A stretch of 38,151 bases of DNA from a virus: IMG/VR virus record IMGVR_UViG_3300045988_161139; one strand, written 5' to 3'. A program made the position numbers and the translations under genes. The notes beneath the pieces are model-generated. The model was not told the DNA's origin, did no database searches, and worked only from the letters and a program-made list of their open reading frames with translations. Numbering within the stretch: the stretch's first letter is position 1; every line of letters starts with the position of its first letter. Of this stretch, positions 713 through 37,030 are shown in pieces.

Positions 713-727
713 AAAAAACAATTTTTG

Positions 728-798
728 CCGCGCCGGCAGGATTCGAACCTGCGATTTCACCTCCAAAGGGTGACGTGTTGCCCCTACACCACGGCGCA
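728..798 (-). tRNA. tRNA-Gln (anticodon TTG)
   Basis: Minus strand: TGCGCCG-TG-GTGT-AGGGGCA-ACAC-G-TCACC-CTTTGGA-GGTGA-AATC-GCAGG-TTCGAAT-CCTGC-CGGCGCG-G. The cloverleaf has a 7-bp acceptor stem (U1-G72 wobble), 4-bp D stem, 5-bp anticodon stem with loop CUUUGGA (anticodon UUG) and a canonical GGTTCGAATCC T-arm. No CCA is encoded. The 3' end lies 15 nt upstream of the methyltransferase ATG. Confidence 0.8.
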
Positions 799-1029: not shown

Positions 1030-1149
1030 TGGTGTAGGCAGGATTCGAACCTGCACGACTGCTTTCCGAGGAGCGTCCTCCGCAACTTGCGTTGCCCGAC
1101 CACTATCAGCCCATCTTTTTGTGTGCGTCTACCATTCCGCCACTACACC
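1030..1149 (-). ncRNA. Aberrant 120-nt tRNA-like element: perfect acceptor stem, tRNA-Leu/Tyr-like D-arm and canonical T-arm, but no recognisable anticodon arm
   Basis: Minus strand: GGTGTAG-TG-GCG-GAATGGTAGA-CGC-A...(about 65 nt containing hairpins GCAAC-GCAA-GTTGC and GAGGA-CGC-TCCTC)...GCAGG-TTCGAAT-CCTGC-CTACACC-A. The 7/7 acceptor pairing, GG-containing D-loop and T-arm are tRNA hallmarks. It is too long for a standard tRNA and no 5-bp stem with a 7-nt loop was found in the middle. Confidence 0.5.
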
Positions 1150-2868: not shown

Positions 2869-3297
2869 ATGTTGACGGGACAAAATAAAATCAATTTAAT
2901 ATTAGATCACGTAGGCATTAAAGCCCCTACGTTTGCTAAACATGTCGGGGTTAAATATCAGCGGATATTAGATATTCAAAACGGAAAGGTTAAAAACATC
3001 TCTGCTGAGGTAGCAAGCCGCATTATAGACGTTTATCCACAGTTCAACATTGAATGGCTTCTCACCGGCGAAGGTGAGATGTTGAATTCCGAAACGAAAG
3101 AACCTAACTCAAACGAAGAAGATATGCAAATGAAAGAATTAATCGCAGCTTTCCGCGAGAACCGTGAGATGTTGGCCGAAGCGTTGGATCAGAACTCGCG
3201 GCTCATCGGCGTGATCGAGCGGATGCAGGGGATAGACCGCTCTGCGACAGGAGTTCAAAAATCCCCCCCCCACGTATTTCGCACAGAAACCGAGTAA
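2869..3297 (+). CDS. XRE-family HTH transcriptional regulator (cI-like repressor candidate)
   Basis: An N-terminal HTH region followed by the motif ...NIEWLLTGEGEML..., which recurs in Bacteroidota phage-repressor-like HTH proteins. It is positioned between the switch region and the integrase-side accessory genes. Confidence 0.6.
   Translation: MLTGQNKINLILDHVGIKAPTFAKHVGVKYQRILDIQNGKVKNISAEVASRIIDVYPQFNIEWLLTGEGEMLNSETKEPNSNEEDMQMKELIAAFRENREMLAEALDQNSRLIGVIERMQGIDRSATGVQKSPPHVFRTETE
3263..3271. repeat. Poly-C homopolymer (9 C) inside the 3' end of the regulator gene
   Basis: aaaatcccccccccacg read directly. Confidence 0.9.
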
Positions 3298-3430
3298 ATT
3301 TCGATTGCAATAAGGAATACGATAAAATCATTTATTTATACAACAAACGGGTAAAACCGAGTTGAAATAGCCGTAGCAACGAAATAAAAAGTTATTATTT
3401 TTGTTGTACTACAATTAAAACACGTTTATC

Positions 3431-3871
3431 ATGTCTTATCCGGTATTAGCGATTGCAAACAAGTTGTTAGCCAGTGCTACCGACTACGACGGCGGAGAAC
3501 TCATGTCGAACATGAAGCTGCAAAAGATGCTTTACTATCAGCAAGGGTATCATTTAGCCGCATTCGGTACTCCCCTGTTCGATGAAGACATTGAAGCGTG
3601 GATGTACGGGCCTGTTGTTCCGTGCGTCTACGACCACTTCAAGAAGTTCGGCGCGGGCGGTATCGAACCCGAAACGGATCAACCTCTCATGCTATCGGAC
3701 GAGGAAGAATCGCTCTTTCAAGATGTGTTTACCGCCTATATTAATTTTTCAGCCTTAGGGCTTATGGAAAAAACGCACGGCGAAACTCCGTGGCGCACGA
3801 CTCCTACGGGTGTCGGTCATGTGATCGGCAAGGATAAGATGCGGGATTTTTTCCACAAGCAGTTAGCGTAA
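3431..3871 (+). CDS. Panacea-domain (DUF4065, SocA/PanA-like) protein, putative antitoxin
   Basis: MSNMKLQKMLYYQQGYHLAAFGTPLFDEDIEAWMYGPVVPCVYDHFKKFG matches the DUF4065/Panacea core (KLQKLLYY ... AW..GPV ... Y). Confidence 0.75.
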   Translation: MSYPVLAIANKLLASATDYDGGELMSNMKLQKMLYYQQGYHLAAFGTPLFDEDIEAWMYGPVVPCVYDHFKKFGAGGIEPETDQPLMLSDEEESLFQDVFTAYINFSALGLMEKTHGETPWRTTPTGVGHVIGKDKMRDFFHKQLA

Positions 3872-3886
3872 CCGGCTGCAACGACA

Positions 3887-4267
3887 ATGAGCGTCAAGAA
3901 ACAAAGTCCGGCACAAAGCTACATCGGGAAGGATAGCCGCATATCCTTCGGATTTGGCCACCTTCACGATGTGAGCTATACCGATTGCAAACAGCCGACT
4001 TTCTTCATCGATTTCTTACAACGGTTGAAGAAGATATGCTGTGTCGATTGGAATACCGTCAATACATCCCAACGGCACGCATTCGGATGGGAGAAGATTT
4101 CGATCGGTTCCATTAAGAGAAAAAAATTGAATTTGACACGCGACGTCGGGTTTCTGATGGCTTTTCGTGCCACTGGAGACAATCATGTATTTTTGGGATT
4201 CCGGGAAGGAAATGTGTTTCAAGTGGTATTTGTCGAATCAAGTTTCGGCGACATTTACAATCATTGA
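3887..4267 (+). CDS. Hypothetical 126-aa protein, candidate toxin partner of the Panacea antitoxin
   Basis: It starts 16 nt after the Panacea gene on the same strand. I recognise no family for it. Confidence 0.5.
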   Translation: MSVKKQSPAQSYIGKDSRISFGFGHLHDVSYTDCKQPTFFIDFLQRLKKICCVDWNTVNTSQRHAFGWEKISIGSIKRKKLNLTRDVGFLMAFRATGDNHVFLGFREGNVFQVVFVESSFGDIYNH

Positions 4268-4317: not shown

Positions 4318-4839
4318 TTGTATAACATGAAATATAATTGCATTATAATTTATTTGCTCCTATTTTTGATTTCGATTAGTGCGATCAGTTGCGAAAAGGA
4401 GACTGTCATCACTATATCCAACGAATCCTTCGAAGAGTATTTTCCGTATCATGAAAATGGGAAATCATATAATGAACCTTTTCGATATGTAGGAGAAGAT
4501 AAGAATGGCGACCCTATATGGAGATCATTATATGAAATTGAGGAATCCATCAATCGGTGTACAATTGAATTTAGTAATAAAAATCATTACATAAATTTTG
4601 GAGAAATTCCGTCTCTGTCCATATTACAAGAATGGAATTATTTAAAAGAGCGACCGCAAGACTATGGAGTTGACGCATTCCATATTGTTGCCTATTTCAC
4701 CTTTACCTATGAAAATATAGATGGGAATTATTATATAAAGAATTACCACTACACTACAGATGCTCGCATATTCGGAATGAACTATCTTGAATTCGATTCT
4801 TCGAACGGAAAAATCGGCAGGTGGGTTCATAAAAAGTAA
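4318..4839 (+). CDS. Lipoprotein (likely start MKYNCIII..., 4327), moron
   Basis: Signal peptide plus lipobox ...LLLFLISISAISCEKE. Strongly AT-rich codon usage, unlike the rest of the genome. Confidence 0.55.
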   Translation: MYNMKYNCIIIYLLLFLISISAISCEKETVITISNESFEEYFPYHENGKSYNEPFRYVGEDKNGDPIWRSLYEIEESINRCTIEFSNKNHYINFGEIPSLSILQEWNYLKERPQDYGVDAFHIVAYFTFTYENIDGNYYIKNYHYTTDARIFGMNYLEFDSSNGKIGRWVHKK

Positions 4840-4900: not shown

Positions 4901-5296
4901 ATGGAAGATTTTTTTGTAATGATGCTAATTGTATGGGCGGTGGGTATCTTGTCAATTATATTATTCTTCAAATTATGGAGGATGACAAATGACATTAAGA
5001 AGATTTGCATTTCTGTGGCAAAAGAACCGCAACGAGGCCGAAATTGGATGGTTTCTACGATGCTGATGAAAGGCGAGTCTCCAGAAATGATAAGTAAATA
5101 TTTAATTGAATCTTTTTCAGAGGATATTCATAGACTATACAAAGTTGGATATACGGAACAGGCGTTTACCCAATATGCAAACGCAAAAATCACCCAATAT
5201 AAAAAGTTATATGAGTTAATTGGAATAGAGATGCCAGATAGTATACAAAATGCAAATACAATCACAAAAGTAAAAACCATTTTTCATCAAGGATGA
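4901..5296 (+). CDS. Small membrane-anchored protein; paralogue of 15721..15972
   Basis: N-terminal MEDFFVMMLIVWAVGILSIILFFKLWRMTNDIKK aligns with MADIYAIIGIVMLIFGILQIVLFFKLWGMTNDVRR of the 15721 gene. Confidence 0.55.
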   Translation: MEDFFVMMLIVWAVGILSIILFFKLWRMTNDIKKICISVAKEPQRGRNWMVSTMLMKGESPEMISKYLIESFSEDIHRLYKVGYTEQAFTQYANAKITQYKKLYELIGIEMPDSIQNANTITKVKTIFHQG

Positions 5297-5357: not shown

Positions 5358-5945
5358 ATGGAACTGCAACCCATCCAAAGCAAGATATACGAAATCCGGG
5401 GCCAGCGTGTGATGCTGGACTTCGATCTGGCGGAACTCTACCAAGTGGAGACCCGAACACTCAAACAGGCGGTACGACGCAATATTGAGCGTTTCGAAGG
5501 CGACGATTTTATGTTTGAACTCTCGGATAACGAGTATAACGCATTGAAAGACAGAATAAGGTCACAAAATGTGATCTTAGAAATCGACGGACGAGGCAAG
5601 TATCCCAAATATCCGCCCTTTGCCTTTACGGAAATGGGGGTTGCAATGCTTTCGAGCGTGTTGCGCAGTGAGACAGCCATACGGGTAAATAGGGCTATTA
5701 TGCGGGCTTTCGTAGCGATGCGCAACTACATCATGACCACGACGACAGTAACGGCAGAATTGGCCGAAATTCGGGCACGGCTGGCGTTGTTGGAGCAGAC
5801 AGGCAAGGACAACGCCGAAGCGGTCAGCGATCTATCGGAGGATATGCGTAAGGAGCTCGACAATATCTACGAGGCAATTGCGGCACTCTCCGTGAAGGTT
5901 CCGCAGGCACGCAAATCTCCTCAGCCAATCGGGTTCAAAAAATAG
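5358..5945 (+). CDS. ORF6N-domain protein (antirepressor/Bro-N-like)
   Basis: IRGQRVMLDFDLAELYQVETRTLKQAVRRNIERFEGDDFMFELS is the ORF6N signature. The C-terminal half is coiled-coil. Confidence 0.75.
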   Translation: MELQPIQSKIYEIRGQRVMLDFDLAELYQVETRTLKQAVRRNIERFEGDDFMFELSDNEYNALKDRIRSQNVILEIDGRGKYPKYPPFAFTEMGVAMLSSVLRSETAIRVNRAIMRAFVAMRNYIMTTTTVTAELAEIRARLALLEQTGKDNAEAVSDLSEDMRKELDNIYEAIAALSVKVPQARKSPQPIGFKK

Positions 5946-6078: not shown

Positions 6079-6741
6079 ATGAATATTCTGGGCAACCCTT
6101 TCAGAAACTTGCGCCTCGAAACACCCGCGCCGACGGCCAAACGAGCCATCTCCGCGGAGTCGATACAGCAGATAATCGACTTGCCGCCACTCGCCAACGA
6201 ACGCGCTCGGATGGCGCGGGATTGCTTCCTCCTGTCGTTCGCACTGATGGGGATGAACAGCGCCGATCTGCTGACCTGCCCGCCGGCCAGGAAGGACGAA
6301 ATCGTGTATTTCCGGCAAAAAACCGCATCCCGCCGCACGGACCGTGCAGAAATGCACGTTCGGATAGAGCCGTGCGTCAGCCCTTTGATCGCTCGCTATT
6401 CGGATAAGACGGGGAAACGATTGCTTCACTTCTACCTCCGCTACAAAGATCGCGTGTCATTCAACAAAGCGATCAACAAAGGCCTGAAAGATGTCGGCGA
6501 GGCGATAGGCGTCGATGGCCTGACGTTCTACGCTGCGCGGCACTCCTGGGCAACCATAGCGCGGACTCCCCGAGAGGAGGGCGGAGCCGGACTGGACAAA
6601 TACGTGATTCATGAAGCGTTGAATCACGTTGACACATCCATGAAAGTCACCGATATTTACCTCGTGAAAAACTGGCGTGTCATTTTCGACGCCAACAAAG
6701 CCGTAATGAATCTTTTCGATTGGAGCGGAATCGGGAAATAA
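6079..6741 (+). CDS. Tyrosine site-specific recombinase/integrase (catalytic domain only, 220 aa)
   Basis: ...YAARHSWATIAR... (box II H-x-x-R) and ...HEALNHVDTSMKVTDIYLV (H...Y) are catalytic motifs of tyrosine recombinases. No N-terminal core-binding domain is encoded upstream. Confidence 0.7.
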   Translation: MNILGNPFRNLRLETPAPTAKRAISAESIQQIIDLPPLANERARMARDCFLLSFALMGMNSADLLTCPPARKDEIVYFRQKTASRRTDRAEMHVRIEPCVSPLIARYSDKTGKRLLHFYLRYKDRVSFNKAINKGLKDVGEAIGVDGLTFYAARHSWATIARTPREEGGAGLDKYVIHEALNHVDTSMKVTDIYLVKNWRVIFDANKAVMNLFDWSGIGK

Positions 6742-6754
6742 TTCCGGCAACGAG

Positions 6755-7330
6755 TTATCGGAACACGGCCCATCCTATTTTCGTGCCGACATATTGTTTT
6801 TCCCGGATCGGATCATACCCTACTATGACCTCACCGCTCCATCGGCCTCTCGTATAGCGTCCGTAGATGCCCGCCCACTGGTTATATGGATCGATTCCGA
6901 GGGCGAGCCCCATTTCCCAGCGCGGCGGCCGCACCTCGGTATGCAGTTTTGTAACCGTAATCTCACGGAAAACCGGCTTTACTACGGCCGAAGCCCGCAA
7001 CAGCCGGTTTTCTCCTACGGTCGCATCGACAAGGAACGTTCCGGTCGAATCGGCGGAGAAATCCAGCCGGTAATCCCGTTCGAGCAGATAGTCGGCGATG
7101 ATTGCGGCTGTATCTACACTCATGTATTTCCATACCGTATCGGCCGGTTCGCGCACCGCGACCGGATAGGGTTCCCGAATGGTGTCGTACACGGGAACCG
7201 GCCACGGCACCCATCGGGTAACGGTGCTGTCGCGCATTTCGACGGAAGCCGCCCCGCGGCGGTAGCCCCAGCCGAAAAACAGTGAACCGACGATGAATGC
7301 GGCCAACAGATATGCGAGTAATCGTCTCAC
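6755..7330 (-). CDS. Hypothetical protein with N-terminal signal/TM, last gene of the lysis cassette (spanin-like candidate)
   Basis: MRRLLAYLLAAFIVGSLFFGW... It overlaps the endolysin stop by 4 nt. Confidence 0.45.
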   Translation of the reverse strand: MRRLLAYLLAAFIVGSLFFGWGYRRGAASVEMRDSTVTRWVPWPVPVYDTIREPYPVAVREPADTVWKYMSVDTAAIIADYLLERDYRLDFSADSTGTFLVDATVGENRLLRASAVVKPVFREITVTKLHTEVRPPRWEMGLALGIDPYNQWAGIYGRYTRGRWSGEVIVGYDPIREKQYVGTKIGWAVFR

Positions 7331-7731
7331 AGATGCAACACCTGCCTTCGGTTCTTCCCGTCGGCACGGTATGAAATATGAATCCAGCGGCCCCGATTCT
7401 CGTCGATGAGCTGGTCGAAGGGGATCGCGCTGGCTGCGATGCGTTCGAACAGCCGCAGATTATCCGCGACGCTGCCGGTGGTGATGTCGGCCGCTTCGCC
7501 CTTCATGTGCTGGCTTGCCGCAGCGCCGCCGACGGCTGCGTTGAGCGCCGGCGATCGGTAGCCGCTGTTCACGCCGATCGGATTGCCCCAAAGTTCGCGC
7601 ACGGGATCGAGGCATTCATCCATCAGCGCATTGAGCCGGCGAATGACGTCGTGCGACGGCGCGTTGTCGATGCGGCGCGCTGCGGCCGTATCGGAACGCA
7701 CCAATTCGGAAAGGGTGAAATACGTTGCCAT
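7327..7731 (-). CDS. Endolysin, peptidase M15 (L-alanyl-D-glutamate / D-Ala-D-Ala peptidase family)
   Basis: ...GVNSGYRSPALNAAVGGAAASQHMKGEAADI... matches the SGYRS..N..VGG..SQH..G.A.D Zn-binding core of the Peptidase_M15_3 family. Confidence 0.8.
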   Translation of the reverse strand: MATYFTLSELVRSDTAAARRIDNAPSHDVIRRLNALMDECLDPVRELWGNPIGVNSGYRSPALNAAVGGAAASQHMKGEAADITTGSVADNLRLFERIAASAIPFDQLIDENRGRWIHISYRADGKNRRQVLHL

Positions 7732-13020: not shown

Positions 13021-13075
13021 AGCAAATATAGGATACGCAGGAAGGGTTCCTCCGAACTTTTCGCTGTTTTTTTAC
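13021..13075 (-). promoter_or_regulatory. Conserved late-operon element, copy 1 (-7 box TATATTTGCTTCAAA plus upstream AGCGAAAAGTTCGGAGGAACCC block, minus-strand sense)
   Basis: Plus strand: tttgaagcaaatataggatacgcaggaagggttcctccgaacttttcgctgttttttt. It is near-identical to 24585..24643. Confidence 0.55.
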
Positions 13076-15663
13076 CTTTTGCGTCCGGCGTAGCGCGCCG
13101 TCTCATCCTGCACCTTGACCCGCCGCTGACCGTTGTTTATATCCCTGACCGTCACGACAGGGTTCGGAAGCCGGCGCATCACGCGCTCGAACATCTGTTC
13201 CATCTGACGCATCCCCGAACTCTTCTCCGGAAGATGCCGCGTCGGAATGGCGTTGCCGCCGCTCGACACGTTCATCATCGAGAGCACCGGCCCCCAATCC
13301 ACGACCGCACGGGCCGTCATCACGGCCTCGCCGTTGGACAGCCGCGCAGGGATGCTGTCGCTCGTACCCGTGCCGGGGCCGGTCACAAGACCGCCGCGGG
13401 CAAATTTCGGCGTAGCCGGTTTCTCGGCTTGATTCAAAACTTGGTACGCCTGCGCAATAGCGGAAAGGACAGCCGCAATCGCAGCCGCCATTTTGATCGG
13501 ACGCGCGGCATTGCCTGCAATCGCTTCGGAGATCGCCAACGCCGTATTGACACCGATATTGAACAGCGCCAGCAGTTTTGCGAACTCGGCAAACTCCGCA
13601 TTATCTTCGGCCAGCGTATTGAACAGATTGGCTGCCGCACCGCTGATCGTCGACATCGCCGTCAATGTGGTGTTTAGCTGATATTCAGCCTGCTCTTTGG
13701 TAATTCTTGCCGTCTCCAATTTCGCATCCTGAACCGCCATTTCACCATTGAGAACGGCCGTCTGGTATGCAACATCCGAATCATACAGAGATTCTTTCGT
13801 TGCTTCGTCCATACTCAGCAGTGCCTGGTATTTATCCATAGCGATGCGAAGCTCCTCCTGCGCGATCGCCCGCTGGGCGGAGAGACGTTTCCCATTATCC
13901 TCGCTTTTCAGGTCGGAATAGTTCTCGTTCTTGACTTGCGCACGAGCCAGGGCATCCATCTGGGCATCCATACCGAGGCGGGCCCTGATGCGCGCTTCCT
14001 CACGCGCCAACTCCTTGCGCAACGCCTCCTCGCTGTATTTTTCCTCGACGGATATTCGGTCTTTCTGATACTTTTCGTCCAGAGCCAATATCCGTTTGTT
14101 CAGCGTCTCTTTCTCTTGAAGGAGCCACGCCGCCTGCTCTCCTTCGGCGGTTTTCAGCAGGATGTCGATCTCGCTGATTCGCTTTTCTGCCGATTTTTTC
14201 GCAACCGAGTTTTGCTCAGAAATGCTTTTTAACTCGCTCTCTTTCGTCTTGGTACGCATCTGCTGGACGAGTTGGAAATAATCCTTCTCCGCTTTGAGGG
14301 CCGCATCTTTCGCTTCCTTGATGGCTTTGGCGCGGGTTTTGGCGGTTTGGGTTGCTTTTGCATCGGTTTCATTCAGACGTTCTTGCAATTCCCGCAGAGC
14401 GGAATTTTCCTGAGCATTTAGCCGTTTTAACCCCGCTTCCATTTCTGCAAGTTTGTTGTTTGTCTCAACTGAATTCTTAGTCGGTTCGGCACTTAATTTC
14501 GCGATCTCGAAATCCAACTGGGCGATGTCCTTTTTGATTCTGAACATTTCCCGCGTCTTGTCTATTGCTTCCTGTGCATATTTTGCACGTTCCGCATCCG
14601 AGTTTTTCAATTTATCGTTCGATTTCAGTCGCGCCTCCGCTATTTCCGCTTCGAGTTCTGCAATCCTTACGACGCCTTCCCTGTATTTGATGTTTCGTTC
14701 TTCCTGTTTAGCGGCTAACTCGTTGAATGTTTTCTGTAATTTATCGGCTTCTTCTCTCTGGCTTGTAAAAAGCCTAGGAGTCTTATAAGGGCCTACCTTC
14801 ACAAAATCCTTCAGATAGATTTTTAACTTTGTCCAGAAAATCTTAAATTTCGATGTCGTATTGACGATCGATTCGCCCATCCTGTCTATGGTATTGGTGT
14901 AGGCTGCATTCCACGCATCGGCTGCGGACATCGCCCTCTGATATTTATAAAACAACTCTTCGTTCTCCTGAATACGGGCATTTACTTCCCGAATGGAAAA
15001 CGATAGCGCCTGATAGCTGGCATAGATAGCAGCAATAGCAGCTCCGATAGGTGTAGCAATGAATGCCGCCATCTGTTTAACAAGAGACCCAATGGCACCT
15101 GCTGCACCCTTAATGACATTCGTAATGCCTCCCGCATTTTGAGCCGTTTGCGCAAGTTGTAGCAAGAAATTGTTTCCAACAGGAAGCGTGTTCTGAATGG
15201 CATTCTCATAATTGCCGACATTCGAACGATAATCGCCGATTGCGGCCTCCGCCTCTTTAACGGCGTCACGCTGGGCTTTGATATGATCTGCTAACGCTTT
15301 CCCGCTGGCGCTTTCGCGTTCGGCGGCCGATAACCTTCCATACTGCGCAATAAGGCCGTTCAGATTCGCGCGTAGTTGATTCAAAGACCCGTCAAGCTCT
15401 TTTTCGACCTTAATGTTATTTTGAATCTCTTTTTCATACTGTCTTTGTTCATCCGTCAAGGCTTTTGTGGTAGACTTCAATTCTAATTGTGCCTTTTTAT
15501 AATCGGACAGCGAAATCTGGCCGGTCTCGTACTCTTTTTTGAGGTCGGACAAAATCTTCTTATTGTCTTCAATCGCTTCGTTGGCTTTTACCCAACCCTG
15601 AACGAGTTCCTTATAATTGAAGCGAATATTAATAATCTTATCGATCGAATCTTGTGTAGCCAT
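13072..15663 (-). CDS. Tail tape measure protein
   Basis: 863 aa. Long coiled-coil/alpha-helical K/E/Q/A-rich repeats and a Gly-rich C-terminus (GGLVTGPGTGTSDSIP). Position fits a tail module. Confidence 0.8.
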   Translation of the reverse strand: MATQDSIDKIINIRFNYKELVQGWVKANEAIEDNKKILSDLKKEYETGQISLSDYKKAQLELKSTTKALTDEQRQYEKEIQNNIKVEKELDGSLNQLRANLNGLIAQYGRLSAAERESASGKALADHIKAQRDAVKEAEAAIGDYRSNVGNYENAIQNTLPVGNNFLLQLAQTAQNAGGITNVIKGAAGAIGSLVKQMAAFIATPIGAAIAAIYASYQALSFSIREVNARIQENEELFYKYQRAMSAADAWNAAYTNTIDRMGESIVNTTSKFKIFWTKLKIYLKDFVKVGPYKTPRLFTSQREEADKLQKTFNELAAKQEERNIKYREGVVRIAELEAEIAEARLKSNDKLKNSDAERAKYAQEAIDKTREMFRIKKDIAQLDFEIAKLSAEPTKNSVETNNKLAEMEAGLKRLNAQENSALRELQERLNETDAKATQTAKTRAKAIKEAKDAALKAEKDYFQLVQQMRTKTKESELKSISEQNSVAKKSAEKRISEIDILLKTAEGEQAAWLLQEKETLNKRILALDEKYQKDRISVEEKYSEEALRKELAREEARIRARLGMDAQMDALARAQVKNENYSDLKSEDNGKRLSAQRAIAQEELRIAMDKYQALLSMDEATKESLYDSDVAYQTAVLNGEMAVQDAKLETARITKEQAEYQLNTTLTAMSTISGAAANLFNTLAEDNAEFAEFAKLLALFNIGVNTALAISEAIAGNAARPIKMAAAIAAVLSAIAQAYQVLNQAEKPATPKFARGGLVTGPGTGTSDSIPARLSNGEAVMTARAVVDWGPVLSMMNVSSGGNAIPTRHLPEKSSGMRQMEQMFERVMRRLPNPVVTVRDINNGQRRVKVQDETARYAGRKR

Positions 15664-21358: not shown

Positions 21359-22621
21359 CTAAGACTCGGCAGCCGGTTTCTGCAAGGCGGCGATAATGGT
21401 CGCAAACGTGCCTTTGACGAACGCCCCCTGATCGACCGATGCGAAGTACGAGTGCAGACGCTCCTCGCAGATGACCGTGAAGAGATTCTTCTGGAAGTCG
21501 TCGTCGACCCACCCGAATTCGACGCGAATGCCTTTGTACGGGCGAACGTTCCATTTGCTCGTATCGGCAACGAGGAAATCGCCGGCCTTGACGTAGGTCG
21601 ATTCCACGATCTCCACCCCGCGGATGAGCCGGAACAGCTCGTCCGAGATGTAGTGACCCGTCGAATCCTTCGTCAGGTCGATGGAGGCCCGATCCGAAGG
21701 GTTGAGCATCACCACGTCGGGATAGAAGTTCAGGTTCCGCATCTGGAGGATCGCTGCGCGGATCGCATCGGCCTTGTTCGCCATTTCGACCGTCCCGTCG
21801 AGCGCGGTGGCCGTATAGGCGGCAGCAGCCGTAAAGATGCCTTTGAGATTCACGCCCGTGCCGTCACCGGTGAGCAGCTGTTTCGTGCGTTCCTGAACGA
21901 GCGACGTGCGCAGCATGTTGTCGATCTCCGACTGCATATAGTCGAAATCGTCGCGCATCTCGTAGGAGATTTTGGCCGATACGGCCACTTTCTTCGCCGT
22001 CGACGTCTCAGGGACATACGACCAGTCCATAGCGGGCTTCAAGGTCCCCTCGGCGATGAATGCAGGAGCGCCGTTGCCGGGCTTGCGATCCACCCACGTG
22101 ATATTGGGCGAGTTGGTCGAGCCCTTGAACAACCGTTCTACGACGCGCGTGTCTTCGCTCGGCGCGTAATGAATCGTGCGGTCTACTTCGGTGTTGAGCG
22201 CTGCAACCGCCGTGGTATTGGCCGCCACGGTGATCGTCGTAGCCGCCGCTTTGATCTCCAGTTCGAGCGCCGTATTGCGTTTCTCCGCGAAAGCGCGTTT
22301 CGCCTCGTCGCTCGAAAGGAACGCCTTGATCTGCTCGCGGATCGTGCGGCCCTTTCCGGCGCTACCGCTCATCGAACGGCGGATCTCGCTCCCCTGCTCC
22401 TTGAGAGCCTTCTCGATCTCCGCGATCTTCTCGGCCGACACGCCCAGTTTCCCGAGCGACGATTTTACCGACTCGACGATCTCTTCCTCCGATTTGATCC
22501 CCTCGGCCAGCATTTCGAGCTGGTCGTTGATGTGCTTGCCGAGCAATTCCATGCCCTTGCGATCCACATCCGAGAACTCCCCGCTGTCGGGCAGTTTGAA
22601 TTTCTTGAATTTGAATGCCAT
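21359..22621 (-). CDS. Major capsid protein (HK97 fold) with an N-terminal coiled-coil/scaffold-like segment
   Basis: 420 aa. It lies immediately after the prohead protease, and the N-terminal 120 aa are helical and charged. Length and position are typical of HK97-type MCPs with a delta domain. Confidence 0.7.
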   Translation of the reverse strand: MAFKFKKFKLPDSGEFSDVDRKGMELLGKHINDQLEMLAEGIKSEEEIVESVKSSLGKLGVSAEKIAEIEKALKEQGSEIRRSMSGSAGKGRTIREQIKAFLSSDEAKRAFAEKRNTALELEIKAAATTITVAANTTAVAALNTEVDRTIHYAPSEDTRVVERLFKGSTNSPNITWVDRKPGNGAPAFIAEGTLKPAMDWSYVPETSTAKKVAVSAKISYEMRDDFDYMQSEIDNMLRTSLVQERTKQLLTGDGTGVNLKGIFTAAAAYTATALDGTVEMANKADAIRAAILQMRNLNFYPDVVMLNPSDRASIDLTKDSTGHYISDELFRLIRGVEIVESTYVKAGDFLVADTSKWNVRPYKGIRVEFGWVDDDFQKNLFTVICEERLHSYFASVDQGAFVKGTFATIIAALQKPAAES

Positions 22622-24593: not shown

Positions 24594-24643
24594 ATGTAAG
24601 GGCGATAAAAGAGGGTTCTCCGAACTTTTCGCTGTTTTTTCAT
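24585..24643 (-). promoter_or_regulatory. Conserved late-operon element, copy 2 (-7 box TACATTTGCTTCAAA plus AGCGAAAAGTTCGGAGAACCC block)
   Basis: Plus strand: tttgaagcaaatgtaagggcgataaaagagggttctccgaacttttcgctgttttttcat. It lies between terL and the portal gene. Confidence 0.55.
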
Positions 24644-25905
24644 TTTCGGCGGTTGCAGACCCAATAGAGATACTCCATTACAGCGTATCGGGCCGCATCC
24701 CACAAGTGATTGAATTTGTCGATCGGCTGGTTGATCGTAATGCCGTTCACCGAATCCCACACATAGGAATTGGCCTCGGTTTGGAAATTACGGCTGCGGA
24801 CGATATGGAGGCGGAACGATTTGACCATGTGAATTCCGTCCGTTACGGAACCGGCATATTTCTTCGCCTTCACCACGCTGAGCCCGCGCAGCAGCAGGCC
24901 GTCGACCATCGATTCGGGATTTTTAGCGTATTTGTCCGCCGAGTCGGCGAATATGGGCATCCGCCCGACTGTCCCCTCTATCGCATCATAGAGCAAGGCC
25001 GGATCGGAGCAGGGTGCATAAAACTCTTCCTTCATGTATAGATCAAGCCCCCGAAGCCCCAGACGGACGAGCGCCGTAGGATCGTTCGTAAATCCGAAGT
25101 CGAGGCCGAACACGACCCTTTCCAGGTCGGACGGAAATTCATCGATCCAGTCGATATTCGGATAGACAAGGCCCTCTTTCGCCGCACGGATTCCCAATCC
25201 ATAGACTTTCCATCGCCACTCGTCGGCCGTGCCCGCAGCAATGTTCGCCGGTGTAGGTTCATAGGATTCGATCTCTCGTATGACCCCAGGCGGGCAGAAC
25301 GGATTGTCTTTGTATGTCGTGTGCGTAAAATAGGTGTGCGGCTGCCCTTCCAGTTCGAAGGCCCAATGTTCGGTATATTTGGGATTCCAGTCGCCGATGA
25401 CCATCGTCGTGCAGCGCATCGTGATATTTTTGTACTGCTGCTTCGAGATGTCGTCCAGCATCTCGTTGATGTAGATGATGTCGCAATCGTATCCTTCACG
25501 GCTATCCATTCTGTCCAATCCGCGGAAATGGATCACGGAGTTGTTGATATAGTAGTCGGGATGTTGATTCTCGCTGCGCATCGCATCGGGATCGTAGACG
25601 CCGCGCAGGGTCAGTTTCTTGCGGAAATCGGCAAGGGTGATCTCCTTGCAGGCCTGCAACGTATTTCGATATACGAAGATATTGAGCGGGGATAGTGCGA
25701 GCGTACAGATGTCGTACAGAAAATCGAAGGCATCGTAGGTCTTCCCCGAACGGCTCGACCCTTCATTAAAAATCTTCAACACCGCATCCCGTTCCCTGTA
25801 CTGCATGTACCGATACATGAGGTAACGATACACTTTCCCCCGATAGGTGCGGATGTCAGGCAGACGATGCATCGGCAGGCGGTGTTTTTTCGATCGACAA
25901 CGCAT
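24640..25905 (-). CDS. Terminase large subunit (PBSX/Terminase_3-like); true start probably at an internal Met (25872 or 25818)
   Basis: Walker A ...NEGSSRSGKT... and nuclease-domain acidic motif ...VFGLDFGFTNDPTALV... Confidence 0.8.
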   Translation of the reverse strand: MRCRSKKHRLPMHRLPDIRTYRGKVYRYLMYRYMQYRERDAVLKIFNEGSSRSGKTYDAFDFLYDICTLALSPLNIFVYRNTLQACKEITLADFRKKLTLRGVYDPDAMRSENQHPDYYINNSVIHFRGLDRMDSREGYDCDIIYINEMLDDISKQQYKNITMRCTTMVIGDWNPKYTEHWAFELEGQPHTYFTHTTYKDNPFCPPGVIREIESYEPTPANIAAGTADEWRWKVYGLGIRAAKEGLVYPNIDWIDEFPSDLERVVFGLDFGFTNDPTALVRLGLRGLDLYMKEEFYAPCSDPALLYDAIEGTVGRMPIFADSADKYAKNPESMVDGLLLRGLSVVKAKKYAGSVTDGIHMVKSFRLHIVRSRNFQTEANSYVWDSVNGITINQPIDKFNHLWDAARYAVMEYLYWVCNRRK

Positions 25906-29599: not shown

Positions 29600-30330
29600 T
29601 CAGCGGGCCAACCGTTTTTGCTCATTTGTCGGCTCGACGTTATTATCGAAATCCCTGTATGGCTGGGCGAACGGGAGTACTCCCAATTTGCGCAAAGCAT
29701 TGATTCGCTCCAATGCGTCATCGACATCTTGAATCAGGCAGTAGACAAAAATCCGATAAGGCTTAACACCTCGACGTCCCAATTCCTTCACACACTTGGC
29801 TACCGGTTCCAGCTGTGACATCCGGTCACAGGCGAATCGTACCTGATTCATCCATTTCACGCGGGACAACAAGTCGAGGATGAAGGCGTCGTCGCAAGCC
29901 TGACGTGCATCCAGACCTTGATTGAAATCTACGGAGATACCCATACGGACGATCTCCTCGATCTGTTCCAACCCGAAGTCCGACGCCAGCACATTGTTGT
30001 CGAGCAGCACGGCGCGCCGTTTGTCGCCGATGAATTCACGAAGCGGCGATGCCGGACGGATCGAGCCCTCCTTATGCGGAACGATGCACCACGGGCAGCG
30101 GTTCACGCATCCCCGCGTCAGAAAGCCATAGGCTTCGTCCACTCCGTACAGCGAATAATCCGGACAGCAATGTTCGATCTCGTCGGGCAGCGTCGTCGTG
30201 TAGTCTTTATAGCCTGTGCCGGCACGTACGACCTCGCAAGGGTAATAATCCGGACAGTCGGGCGGAAAGCCCATCATCTGGGCCACATATCGGGGATTCA
30301 GTCGGGAACCCTTCCCAGTTCGAGACGGAT
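29600..30330 (-). CDS. CX3CX2C (radical-SAM-type) cysteine-motif domain, read through without a stop from the 3' end of the broken C5-methyltransferase
   Basis: ...YGFLTRGCVNRCPWCIVPHKEG... shows C-x3-C-x2-C as in radical SAM / QueE / NrdG-like proteins. No canonical start codon lies between the methyltransferase motif X (GFPPD) and the cysteine motif. No clear GGE motif is visible. Confidence 0.45.
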
Positions 30331-31083
30331 GCGAAATCATGACGTCGTGGACGACTCCGCTCTTCCGCGTGGCTTGACTGGGTGGAAGACTGGAATTTAT
30401 AGCATCGTTGACCGTCGGCGTTGACAACAGCCCCATCCGCGTTGCAAGCGCGAGCGTCGGCCGAGCAGTCGCACCATCCGACAGGCTCCTGTTCACACGC
30501 CCGCTCCCGCAATCCGACGCGACCGGTGTCGGCAGTAGAGCCGGCGGCAATGGCTCCGAACCGCTCTTGCCATGAACTTTCAGCCCTTGCGTCACCACGG
30601 TGGGCAACAAACCATGTTCTGTATCGCAGGTGGGGAGCACCGACGCCAGCAGCTGGTATAAGGTACGCTTGCACCTCGTATCCTGCCGCCTCCAAATCAG
30701 CGCACACCTGCTCGAAAACCATTCCCTGCGACCAATTAACGATTCCGAGAACGTTCTCGCCCACGACCCAGCGCGGTCGAACAGTCCGAACAACTCCGAG
30801 CATTGCGGGCCAGAGGTAGCGGTCGTCGGCCGTACCCTTGCGTTTGCCCGCGAGGCTGAACGGCTGGCACGGGAAACCGCCGGTGAGCACGTCGATGCAG
30901 TCGCGCCAAACGGTAAAGTCTGTTGTTCGTATGTCTTCATATTTGTTCCGATTCGGGAAAATGATACTTCAATACGCGCCGGCAGAACGGGTCGATCTCG
31001 CAGTTGAAGACGTTCGTCCAGCCGGCCCACGCGGCCGCTAAGTCGAAGCCGCCGATGCCGCTGAATAGAGAACCGTGCGTCAT
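30207..31083 (-). pseudogene. DNA (cytosine-5)-methyltransferase split over three reading frames (two frameshifts)
   Basis: Frame A from the ATG at 31083: MTHGSLFSGIGGFDLAAAWAGW...KYHFPESEQI* (motif I). Frame B from 30937: YEDIRTTDF...LTGGFPCQPFS (motif IV)...VVGENVLGI (motif VI)...PHLRYRTWFVAHR (motif VIII). Frame C from about 30560: LLPTPVASD...RLNPRYVAQMMGFPPD (motifs IX/X). The first frameshift is a 1-nt difference in CAAATAT (plus ttt 30942..30944); deleting one A restores ...ESEQYEDIRTT. Confidence 0.7.
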
Positions 31084-32021
31084 TAGTACTCCACCGCTGC
31101 CCTGCGATCGATGAAGAAATGAATACCCGGTGCGCATTCGCTCCACCTGTTATCGTCGAAATCCGGAACTTCCACAGTAGCACCGACAGTGTAGACGAAG
31201 TCTTTGTCATGGTCGGAACGAACGGTATCCTCAGTTGCCTTGGTGCCGTCCATGTTCTGAATCTCCATGACGTATGCTTTATCGCAACGGCATTTGTGTC
31301 CCGTTGCCGAACTGCGCCGTGCATCTTCCGGAATTCGTAATTTTACGATATGCCCAGAGGCTTTTTTCCAACCGATGAAACTACCCTCAGTCGGACATGA
31401 TAGATAACATCCCTTGGCATCGCGTAGGTTGGCACCGCGCAGGTCGGCGCCGTACAGGTTGGCACCGCGCAGGTCGGCACCGCGCAGGTCGGCGCCGTAC
31501 AGGTTGGCACCGCACAGGTCGGCACAGCGCAGGTCGGCATCGCGCAGGTTGGCACCGCGCAGGTCGGCATCGCTCAGGTTGGCATCGCGCAGGTTGGCAT
31601 CGCGCAGGTTGGCATCGTACAGGTCGGCACCGCGCAGGTTGGCATCGCGCAGGTTGGCACCGCACAGGTCGGCGCCGTACAGGTTGGCACCGCACAGGTC
31701 GGCACAGCGCAGGTCGGCATCGCGCAGGTTGGCACCGCTCAGGTTGGCACTGCGCAGGTTGGCATCGCACAGGTTGGCACCGCACAGGTTGGCACCGCGC
31801 AGGTCGGCACCGCGCAGGTTGGCACCGCGCAGGTTGGCACCGCACAGGTCGGCATCGCACAGGTTGGCATCGCGCAGGTCGGCATCGCGCAGGTTGGCAC
31901 CGCGCCTAATAGCGTCCAAAACCGTTTCGGTGATTGTGTTTCCCTCTTTCGTGTATTCAAATACGACCGAGCCAGTCCAACGGTTGCGGATTTCGATTTT
32001 AATCTGTTTCGTTGATTCCAT
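31083..32021 (-). CDS. Pentapeptide-repeat protein (about 40 A(D/N)LxG-type repeats) with a distinct C-terminal domain
   Basis: ...GANLRDADLRDANLCDADLCGANLRGANLRGADL... throughout residues 40-200. The C-terminal 110 aa is non-repetitive (CYLSCPTEGSFIGW...ECAPGIHFF...). Its stop overlaps the Dcm ATG as TAATG. Confidence 0.8.
   Translation of the reverse strand: MESTKQIKIEIRNRWTGSVVFEYTKEGNTITETVLDAIRRGANLRDADLRDANLCDADLCGANLRGANLRGADLRGANLCGANLCDANLRSANLSGANLRDADLRCADLCGANLYGADLCGANLRDANLRGADLYDANLRDANLRDANLSDADLRGANLRDADLRCADLCGANLYGADLRGADLRGANLYGADLRGANLRDAKGCYLSCPTEGSFIGWKKASGHIVKLRIPEDARRSSATGHKCRCDKAYVMEIQNMDGTKATEDTVRSDHDKDFVYTVGATVEVPDFDDNRWSECAPGIHFFIDRRAAVEY
31397..31910. repeat. 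Near-perfect 15-bp tandem array (gcaggt(c/t)ggca(c/t)cgc) underlying the pentapeptide repeats
   Basis: Read directly. Dozens of units differ only at 2-3 positions. This generates spurious long ORFs in all frames on both strands. Confidence 0.9.
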
Positions 32022-35976: not shown

Positions 35977-36417
35977 TTAGTTGAGTTGCTTTTCAAGGAT
36001 TATTGCATAGTCCGGATATTCTCGGCCATATTGGTCATATACCACGCGAACGCATACCCTGTCGCCCGTGTATTCGGCGTAGCGCTCCACACTGCCGTCG
36101 TCGTGGCTGCCGCCGATGCGCGATTCGTATTCCGCGTAGAAATCGACCGAAGCCGTCAGACCTCTATATTCAACCTCGCAGGTTCCGGATTCCAGCCCGA
36201 GATCATGGGTGATCGCTTCGTTAATCTGTCTGGCGAACTCTTGCAGTTCGGAAGGAACGAGATGTATTTTCGGTTCCTCGATACCGCAGACCACCACAAT
36301 CGGCTCGTCTTTCGACTTCGTGTGCAGGTCATACCCGTAACGGGCCGGTACACTCAAACTCGGATAAACCGCGTATTCTTCTTTTGGCGTTTTCATGCTT
36401 TTCTCAGAATTTTGCAT
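35977..36417 (-). CDS. Hypothetical protein
   Basis: 146-aa ORF. An internal start MKTPKEEY... is possible. Confidence 0.4.
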   Translation of the reverse strand: MQNSEKSMKTPKEEYAVYPSLSVPARYGYDLHTKSKDEPIVVVCGIEEPKIHLVPSELQEFARQINEAITHDLGLESGTCEVEYRGLTASVDFYAEYESRIGGSHDDGSVERYAEYTGDRVCVRVVYDQYGREYPDYAIILEKQLN

Positions 36418-37030
36418 GTTGACGATTGTAGATTCTCCGCATGGAGTTCATCAGATCGGGGAACGTCCGGATATACCCCATATCGACCGAGAAGGCCAGT
36501 TTGCGTTGCAGGTCGTCCAACGCCCGAAGCTGATTCGGCGATGCCGTGTTCCGGATGTCGCGTTCATGCTTGTTGAAGACGATCCAGTTCAAACCCCGCG
36601 CAACCTGAGAATAATCCACATCCGGAAGCGCGGCGATCGACCGTGCAAGTACGTTGTAGTTGTCGCCCGCATGATGCCGGTACTCGATCAGCTGGTCGTA
36701 AACGAATTTCACGACTTTAACCTCGAAGCGGGGATTGAGCCACATCGCAAACTTCACGAACAGGTACGGGTGCATCCATGTACCGCCGTTGTATTTGCCG
36801 CGTGTTTTTAAATATGCCAAATTTGGCACCTTTAAATTTTCCTCCTCCATCAGCGCCTCGATGAAATCTTTGGTGTTCTGATTTTCAAAGAAGTCCTGTA
36901 TTCGTTTGTTGCTGTTCTTGGCTTTGTTCCATTGCGCAAGCAACGACGTCGCGTTGAACATGCCGTCTCTCGTGCGTTGGTATACCTCGAATTTACCCAG
37001 CGGGCGGGTCATGATGACATTGCTTTTCAT
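36404..37030 (-). CDS. KilA-N domain protein (antirepressor-type)
   Basis: ...FNATSLLAQWNKAKNSNKRIQDFFENQNTKDFIEALM...LKTRGKYNGGTWMHPYLFVKFAMWLNPRFEVKV matches KilA-N (GGTW.HP.la..fA.Wlsp.F). Confidence 0.75.
   Translation of the reverse strand: MKSNVIMTRPLGKFEVYQRTRDGMFNATSLLAQWNKAKNSNKRIQDFFENQNTKDFIEALMEEENLKVPNLAYLKTRGKYNGGTWMHPYLFVKFAMWLNPRFEVKVVKFVYDQLIEYRHHAGDNYNVLARSIAALPDVDYSQVARGLNWIVFNKHERDIRNTASPNQLRALDDLQRKLAFSVDMGYIRTFPDLMNSMRRIYNRQHAKF

Follow-up and report, generated by a model that had tools for sequence, protein, structure and literature searches.

Toxin-antitoxin (TA) systems in which a PanA antitoxin, carrying a Panacea domain, is paired with a PanT toxin were defined by Kurata et al. 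(2022, PNAS, PMC8832971), with 1,268 predicted pairs, 88 toxin clusters, and MqsR-like, PemK/MazF and ParE domains among the partners of PanA. The same work showed PanA-PanT complexes for pairs other than the one considered here. Ernits et al. (2023, PMC10440598) showed that an antitoxin made of Panacea alone neutralises through direct contact, while in multidomain PanAs the task falls to other domains, and they proposed a sensor role for Panacea. Here we analyse a panA-panT pair of IMG/VR record IMGVR_UViG_3300045988_161139, a stretch of 38,151 nucleotides (nt), hereafter the window, which is a prophage of Alistipes communis. The pair is a new member, from a gut-Bacteroidota prophage, of the already catalogued cluster T1, whose TA status is still unproven.

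The closest described systems are the T1 pairs of Salmonella phage vB_SemP_Emek, Escherichia coli MOD1, Clostridium cadaveris, and Alistipes senegalensis. As in the window, a standalone Panacea gene comes first, a partner of 125-160 amino acids (aa) follows within a few nt, the pair is phage- or prophage-borne, and the predicted mode of action is that of a messenger RNA nuclease (mRNase). The window protein nonetheless has only about 26% of its aligned residues in common with its Emek counterpart, and its host prophage belongs to Bacteroidota. Two further systems contain the Panacea domain. MqsR-PanA of Bacillus fungorum also couples an mRNA-interferase toxin to a Panacea-containing antitoxin, but there an N-terminal MqsA-like Zn-binding domain neutralises and Panacea is accessory (Ernits et al. 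2023, PMC10440598), whereas the PanA of the window is Panacea only. Hence, any neutralisation at this locus must come from the Panacea domain. In SocAB, the type VI TA system of Caulobacter, SocA carries a Panacea domain (Pfam SocA_Panacea). The window pair differs in having a PanA that scores under the SocA equivalog cut-off and a partner of predicted RelE fold in place of SocB, and there is no evidence in it for the ClpXP adaptor mechanism.

A Conserved Gene Pair of Cluster T1

The initial annotation of the locus, made from the sequence alone, described two consecutive open reading frames (ORFs), and both are found as described, each with an ATG start (Table 1). It recognised the first by a Panacea core, and the quoted motif KLQKMLYYQQ...AWMYGPVV is indeed present. 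The product matches SocA_Panacea (PF13274) with 73.6 bits (cut-off 25.7, E = 3e-20) over residues 30-121 and profile positions 1-112 of 113, with no further domain found in Pfam. It also matches phrog_1281 (E = 4e-40) and is identical to WP_278844687.1 of A. communis, which is annotated as 'SocA domain-containing' or 'Panacea domain-containing' and present in at least 1000 public contigs. Because it lies far under the cut-off of the NCBIfam SocA equivalog NF047745 (72.7 bits for a cut-off of 190), it counts as a generic PanA-type protein of the standalone kind rather than as SocA. The 126-aa product of the second ORF is identical to WP_278844686.1 of the same species, a 'hypothetical protein' present in 791 public contigs.

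A word-indexed search recovered 45 homologues of the 126-aa protein, and a profile search among 1.84 billion cluster representatives recovered 710 at E <= 1e-3 and 215 at E <= 1e-10, all of them 125-160 aa long. Loci were searched with alignment A1, the wide alignment A2 being too diverse for this use. The two-gene neighbourhood, for which the initial annotation advised a check in other genomes, recurs with PanA directly upstream and on the same strand; the related loci number about 120 and come from genomes of Bacteroidota, from viral contigs, and from phages of Proteobacteria. Among species-representative genomes (57 loci, mostly Bacteroidota), this arrangement is found wherever the toxin is intact and upstream DNA is present, the exceptions being three toxins cut off by the edge of a contig and two that are mere fragments. 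PanA is immediately upstream in 68 of the 70 viral contigs of IMG/VR: both genes are intact and adjacent in 64, and four more have one truncated partner. In the remaining two, an insertion of about 1.7 kilobases (kb) separates PanA from a toxin that lacks its N-terminal part. Three divergent homologues each directly follow a Panacea gene of the same strand within completely different flanks: one lies in a dynamin-like GTPase locus, another in an integrase island, and the third at the lysis-integrase junction of a prophage. Members as distant as about 29% identity are found in phages of Pseudomonas (vB_Pae_CF60a and relatives), of E. coli (E212, EC.P3, and phiv205-1), and of Salmonella (vB_SemP_Emek); in the three whose annotation was checked (vB_Pae_CF60a, E212, and Emek) the PanA gene immediately precedes the homologue. 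The module is almost always borne by a prophage or an island, beside lysis or integrase genes. One locus (L047, 3528-4337) has a second full-length Panacea gene 3' of an N-terminally truncated toxin, possibly a PanA module in tandem or one that was swapped.

The distance between the panA stop and the toxin start, over 58 pairs, has a median of 1 nt and ranges from -17 to +15, with one outlier at 95 and many overlaps of -1, -4, or -8. Pairwise identities of PanA and of the toxin correlate (Mantel r = 0.62, with none of 2000 permutations as high). This close spacing and the correlated identities indicate that the two genes are inherited and diverge as one unit.

Dataset S1 of Kurata et al. (2022, PMC8832971) places YP_006560565.1/YP_006560566.1 of phage Emek in cluster T1 (pT1/T1), and the RefSeq annotation of the phage identifies the former as the PanA gene and the latter as its downstream neighbour. 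Profile A2, built around the window protein, matches YP_006560566.1 with an hhalign probability of 99.8% (E = 2e-28). The negative control, Listeria phage B025 gp28 of cluster T9, gives 0.1% and is thus ruled out as a homologue. Cluster T5, which has many Bacteroidales entries, was also considered as the home of the protein and ruled out, its representative being MazF-like. In this Dataset, T1 is the first-listed cluster (rows in table parts 1, 2, 3, and 6), includes A. senegalensis WP_019152038.1/WP_083871171.1, and spans other Bacteroidales, Flavobacteriia, Firmicutes, Actinobacteria, Cyanobacteria, and Proteobacteria; it is probably the largest cluster of PanA partners. Table S1 labels the tested T1 members 'mRNase' (PMC8832971). 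Of the Bacteroidales homologues Barb4 and Barb6, gap arithmetic hints that the latter may correspond to the Barb6 row of T1 (gap 72). A literature search on T1 found nothing later beyond the two papers of Atkinson and Hauryliuk.

The suggestion of a novel PanA-associated toxin is therefore not borne out. The partner is homologous to the T1 protein of Emek and has a predicted RelE/ParE-superfamily fold (see following), and since the family, its association with Panacea, and the same predicted activity were already published, the toxin family is not new. Taken jointly, the assignments as a PanAT pair, as a member of the T1 family, and as a RelE-type fold are very probably right.

Predicted Fold and Candidate Active Site

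By sequence, the 126-aa protein belongs to no recognisable family, as had been noted at the outset: neither it nor 10 of its distant relatives has a match in Pfam or NCBIfam at E < 0.1, and PDB sequences return none for the protein alone (phmmer) or for a 60-sequence profile. Its only match is phrog_8366, of 'unknown function' (E = 2.8e-12), and PADLOC gives nothing significant (NsnC at E = 0.023 was disregarded). With hhalign, the family profile produced no alignment to single sequences of E. coli YoeB, Proteus vulgaris HigB, and E. coli RelE, so that the assignment to RelE is a structural one. Two independent AlphaFold2 models were obtained, from 27 close homologues (predicted local distance difference test, pLDDT, 76; predicted template modelling score, pTM, 0.70) and from a diverse alignment of 60 sequences (pLDDT 87, pTM 0.78). 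The order of elements is the same in both: a short strand precedes two helices, which are followed by four antiparallel strands and, at the C-terminus, a short tail. The predicted structure thus has the N-terminal strand, two helices, and antiparallel sheet characteristic of the RelE/ParE superfamily. In structural comparisons the highest score is that of Thermus thermophilus RelE (7.4, with 81 of 89 residues aligned), followed by E. coli HigB (6.9), the HP0892-type toxin of Helicobacter pylori (6.6), YafQ (6.2), YoeB (6.1), archaeal RelEs (5.6-5.8), and ParEs (4.8-5.2). Hence, mRNA interferases outrank ParEs. Foldseek against the PDB returns the same families, all at E >= 0.3.

The protein has no detectable sequence similarity with RelE, HigB, YafQ, YoeB, or ParE, and differs from RelE/ParE toxins in several other respects. 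Its length exceeds theirs by 30-40 residues, its N-terminal tail is basic and disordered, the loop between beta2 and beta3 is longer, and its partner is a Panacea protein instead of RelB, HigA, YefM, DinJ, or ParD.

Conservation was counted over 245 unique full-length family members (Table 1). The near-invariant positions are F21, F23, W55, R/K63, H64, G67, E69, R94, G104, R106, Y124, and H126. In the models, E69 lies where beta2 starts, and R/K63 and H64 in the loop that leads up to it; beta3 ends at R94 and beta4 at R106, and Y124-x-H126 belongs to the tail, H126 being the last residue of the window protein and the last or nearly the last across the family. Judged by secondary structure, these positions would correspond to those of the catalytic residues of RelE (K52, K54, R61, R81, Y87), YoeB (E46, R65, H83, Y84), and HigB (H54, D90, Y91, H92), and the Y124-N-H126 tail resembles the C-terminal catalytic tails of HigB (..DYH) and YoeB (..HY). 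The ParE gyrase poisons are not known to have such a catalytic set. An mRNA endonuclease, probably ribosome-dependent, is therefore the activity favoured by analogy for the 126-aa protein. By the same analogy, E69, H64, and H126 would likely serve in acid-base catalysis, and R63, R94, R106, and Y124 in RNA positioning.

Prophage Context

Table 1. Features of the window, in order of position; residue counts are over the 245 family members
Feature	Position	Strand	Remarks
tRNA-Gln	727-798	-	
tRNA-like Rfam match	1030-1149	-	40.9 bits, all 71 model positions over 120 nt; not called by ARAGORN; adjoins tRNA-Gln
Helix-turn-helix (HTH) protein	2869..3297	+	upstream of panA
Possible Bacteroidota-type -7 promoter box	3396..3403	+	TATTTTTG, fits TAnnTTTG; 28 nt 5' of panA ATG, inside 133-nt gap after HTH gene
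panA, putative antitoxin	3431..3871	+	146 aa; standalone Panacea/DUF4065, without extra N-terminal domain
Intergenic spacer	3872..3886	+	15 nt; ORFs on either side share reading frame
panT (cluster T1 family), putative mRNA endonuclease toxin	3887..4267	+	126 aa; predicted RelE/ParE fold
R63-H64-x2-G67-x-E69 codons	4073..4093	+	R/K63 234/245, H64 234/245, G67 242/245, E69 242/245
R94 codon, FRATG motif	4166..4168	+	R in 236/245
Y124-N-H126 codons, C-terminal motif	4256..4264	+	Y124 225/245, H126 229/245; remainder mostly gaps
ORF without family	4318-4839	+	lowest-GC stretch (35%), directly 3' of pair
ORF without family	4901-5296	+	same stretch
ORF6N-domain anti-repressor-like protein	5358-5945	+	strong match to PADLOC candidate defence family PDC-S05, E = 1e-51
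220-aa ORF	6079-6741	+	similarity limited to the catalytic C-terminal portion of tyrosine integrases (phrog_1, E = 6e-6); nothing in Pfam
Endolysin	7327-7731	-	
Tape measure protein	13072-15663	-	
Major head protein	21359-22621	-	
Large terminase	24640-25905	-	
Replication genes	about 32.4-33.9 kb	-	
Transcriptional-regulator match	36404..37030		early-gene end of window

The pair lies in a plus-strand arm between the lysis end and the transfer RNA (tRNA) genes, with a guanine-plus-cytosine (GC) content of 35-47% against 53-62% in the phage body. The order in this arm is HTH protein, panA-panT, lipoprotein-like ORF, small membrane ORF, ORF6N anti-repressor-like protein, and truncated integrase-like ORF. 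The placement in an accessory arm, as initially annotated, is thus borne out, but its location next to the repressor is not: upstream there is only an HTH protein, and the early and replication genes, with the transcriptional-regulator match, are at the opposite end of the window. The two family-less ORFs that follow the pair are likely morons. One of them encodes a signal peptide followed by Cys, as in lipoproteins, and the other an N-terminal hydrophobic helix. The 220-aa ORF is probably a truncated integrase, standing between the anti-repressor-like gene and the lysis genes. The tRNA-like match could be a tRNA with an insertion or a remnant of the attachment site at the prophage border. Elsewhere in the window, a 574-aa protein (29600-31324, minus strand) joins a DNA methyltransferase-like region (phrog_1008) to a radical SAM domain (phrog_9298), a fusion unusual for a phage.

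Upstream of panA, the TAnnTTTG pattern of the possible -7 box is frequent in the window (24 matches for 12.7 expected by chance), which makes the box weak evidence of a promoter, given by its position only. A scan for sigma-70 promoters and terminators found nothing over the shuffled background, the sigma-70 model not being informative for this phylum. The same region contains a 9-nt perfect inverted repeat, TACAACAAA / TTTGTTGTA at 3339-3347 / 3400-3408, the right arm of which partly coincides with the putative -7 box; an operator is one possibility and chance another.

Proposed Function and Alternatives

The functional account that we favour is that the A. communis prophage carries, as a moron, a two-gene module of the PanAT type. 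The 126-aa protein would cut mRNA, probably on the ribosome like RelE, HigB, and YoeB, and the co-translated standalone Panacea protein would bind this nuclease directly and keep it inactive; the tight coupling of the genes is consistent with their co-expression. Direct binding is the most likely mode because the window PanA consists of Panacea only and standalone Panaceas neutralise by contact. If the prophage were lost, the antitoxin turned over, or an infection cue reached Panacea, the nuclease would be released and translation in the lysogen would stop, and the outcome would be prophage addiction or an abortive-infection-type defence. As a whole, this account of a RelE-fold mRNA endonuclease restrained by PanA, with a role in addiction or abortive infection, seems to us reasonably probable.

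Several observations weigh against it. The T1 members of E. coli MOD1 and Emek were not toxic in E. coli, and the one of C. cadaveris, which was toxic, escaped neutralisation by its PanA (Kurata et al. 2022, PMC8832971). Since two of the three tested T1 homologues are thus non-toxic when expressed alone in E. coli, the toxin status proposed for the second gene in the initial annotation is not established, even if the toxicity of the third agrees with it. Furthermore, two loci combine a disrupted PanA with an intact-looking toxin: PanA has an in-frame stop in L132 (1919-2359) and an N-terminal truncation in L077 (2200-2481). These may be counter-examples to a strict dependence on the antitoxin, or sequencing errors. 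The result on Emek comes with a caveat. In the genome of this phage (L069, NC_018275.1, 1857-2342) the PanT frame as annotated encodes 161 aa and has a 62-nt overlap with panA. The ATG consistent with the family lies 4 nt past the panA stop and gives 139 aa. The construct tested, pBAD33 SD-YP_006560566.1, holds the annotated protein (PMC8832971), so the protein assayed probably carried 22 spurious N-terminal residues.

Loss of the toxin is the more frequent pattern of decay. PanA is intact and the toxin truncated in seven loci (L047, L050, L065, L074, L099, L075/76). In the near-identical prophage of L074 (IMGVR_UViG_3300045988_135918, 2486-2734; also protein P0011), the toxin is 96% identical over residues 1-72 and disrupted past about residue 72-80, with PanA intact, which looks like a natural inactivation of the toxin. 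This asymmetry fits a costly downstream gene and is suggestive, not decisive.

In the main alternative reading of the pair, the RelE-fold protein is inactive or harmless on its own and acts only upon a phage or stress cue received through Panacea, or only on particular RNAs. The pair would then serve the prophage in superinfection exclusion or abortive infection, or would process RNA, and PanA would be a sensor or partner and not simply an antidote. The two non-toxic T1 members keep this reading alive, and it agrees with the sensor role proposed for Panacea (Ernits et al. 2023), with the near-constant location of the module on prophages or islands beside lysis or integrase genes, and with the two loci where the toxin outlasts PanA. 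However, the C. cadaveris protein is toxic, the Emek construct was probably mis-started, E. coli as a heterologous host may fail to reveal activity, loss of the toxin is more frequent than loss of PanA, as one would expect of a costly toxin, and PADLOC gives no matches. We regard such a conditional effector as possible, if rather doubtful. ParE toxins share the fold, and the 126-aa protein might accordingly poison DNA gyrase instead of cleaving RNA; given the structural ranking and the arrangement of the conserved residues, this is improbable. That the 126-aa ORF is an unrelated phage moron fallen by chance behind a Panacea gene has next to no probability. Nothing but the lack of annotation speaks for it, whereas the pairing persists where the toxins are only about 25-30% identical, in several phyla and in differing neighbourhoods, and the overlapping stop and start codons and the co-divergence also speak against it.

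For the T1 family, the restrained mRNA endonuclease that we favour would add a member to a catalogued system and no new kind of system. What this analysis contributes is a fold and a candidate active site for the protein, statistics on the gene neighbourhood, and a caveat about the start codon used in a published negative test. A RefSeq 'hypothetical' protein that has no Pfam model, and is common in human-gut Alistipes prophages, thereby receives a predicted fold and a candidate active site (H64, E69, R94, Y124, H126). A bolder and, in our view, unlikely proposal is that the T1 proteins are RelE-fold nucleases that are not constitutively toxic and are licensed only when the standalone Panacea senses an incoming phage or prophage induction. 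If this were true, the module of gut Alistipes and other Bacteroidota would be a trigger-dependent abortive-infection or superinfection-exclusion system, and the published 'not toxic' results would be due to the absence of the trigger, or to a wrongly annotated start, rather than to a lack of function.
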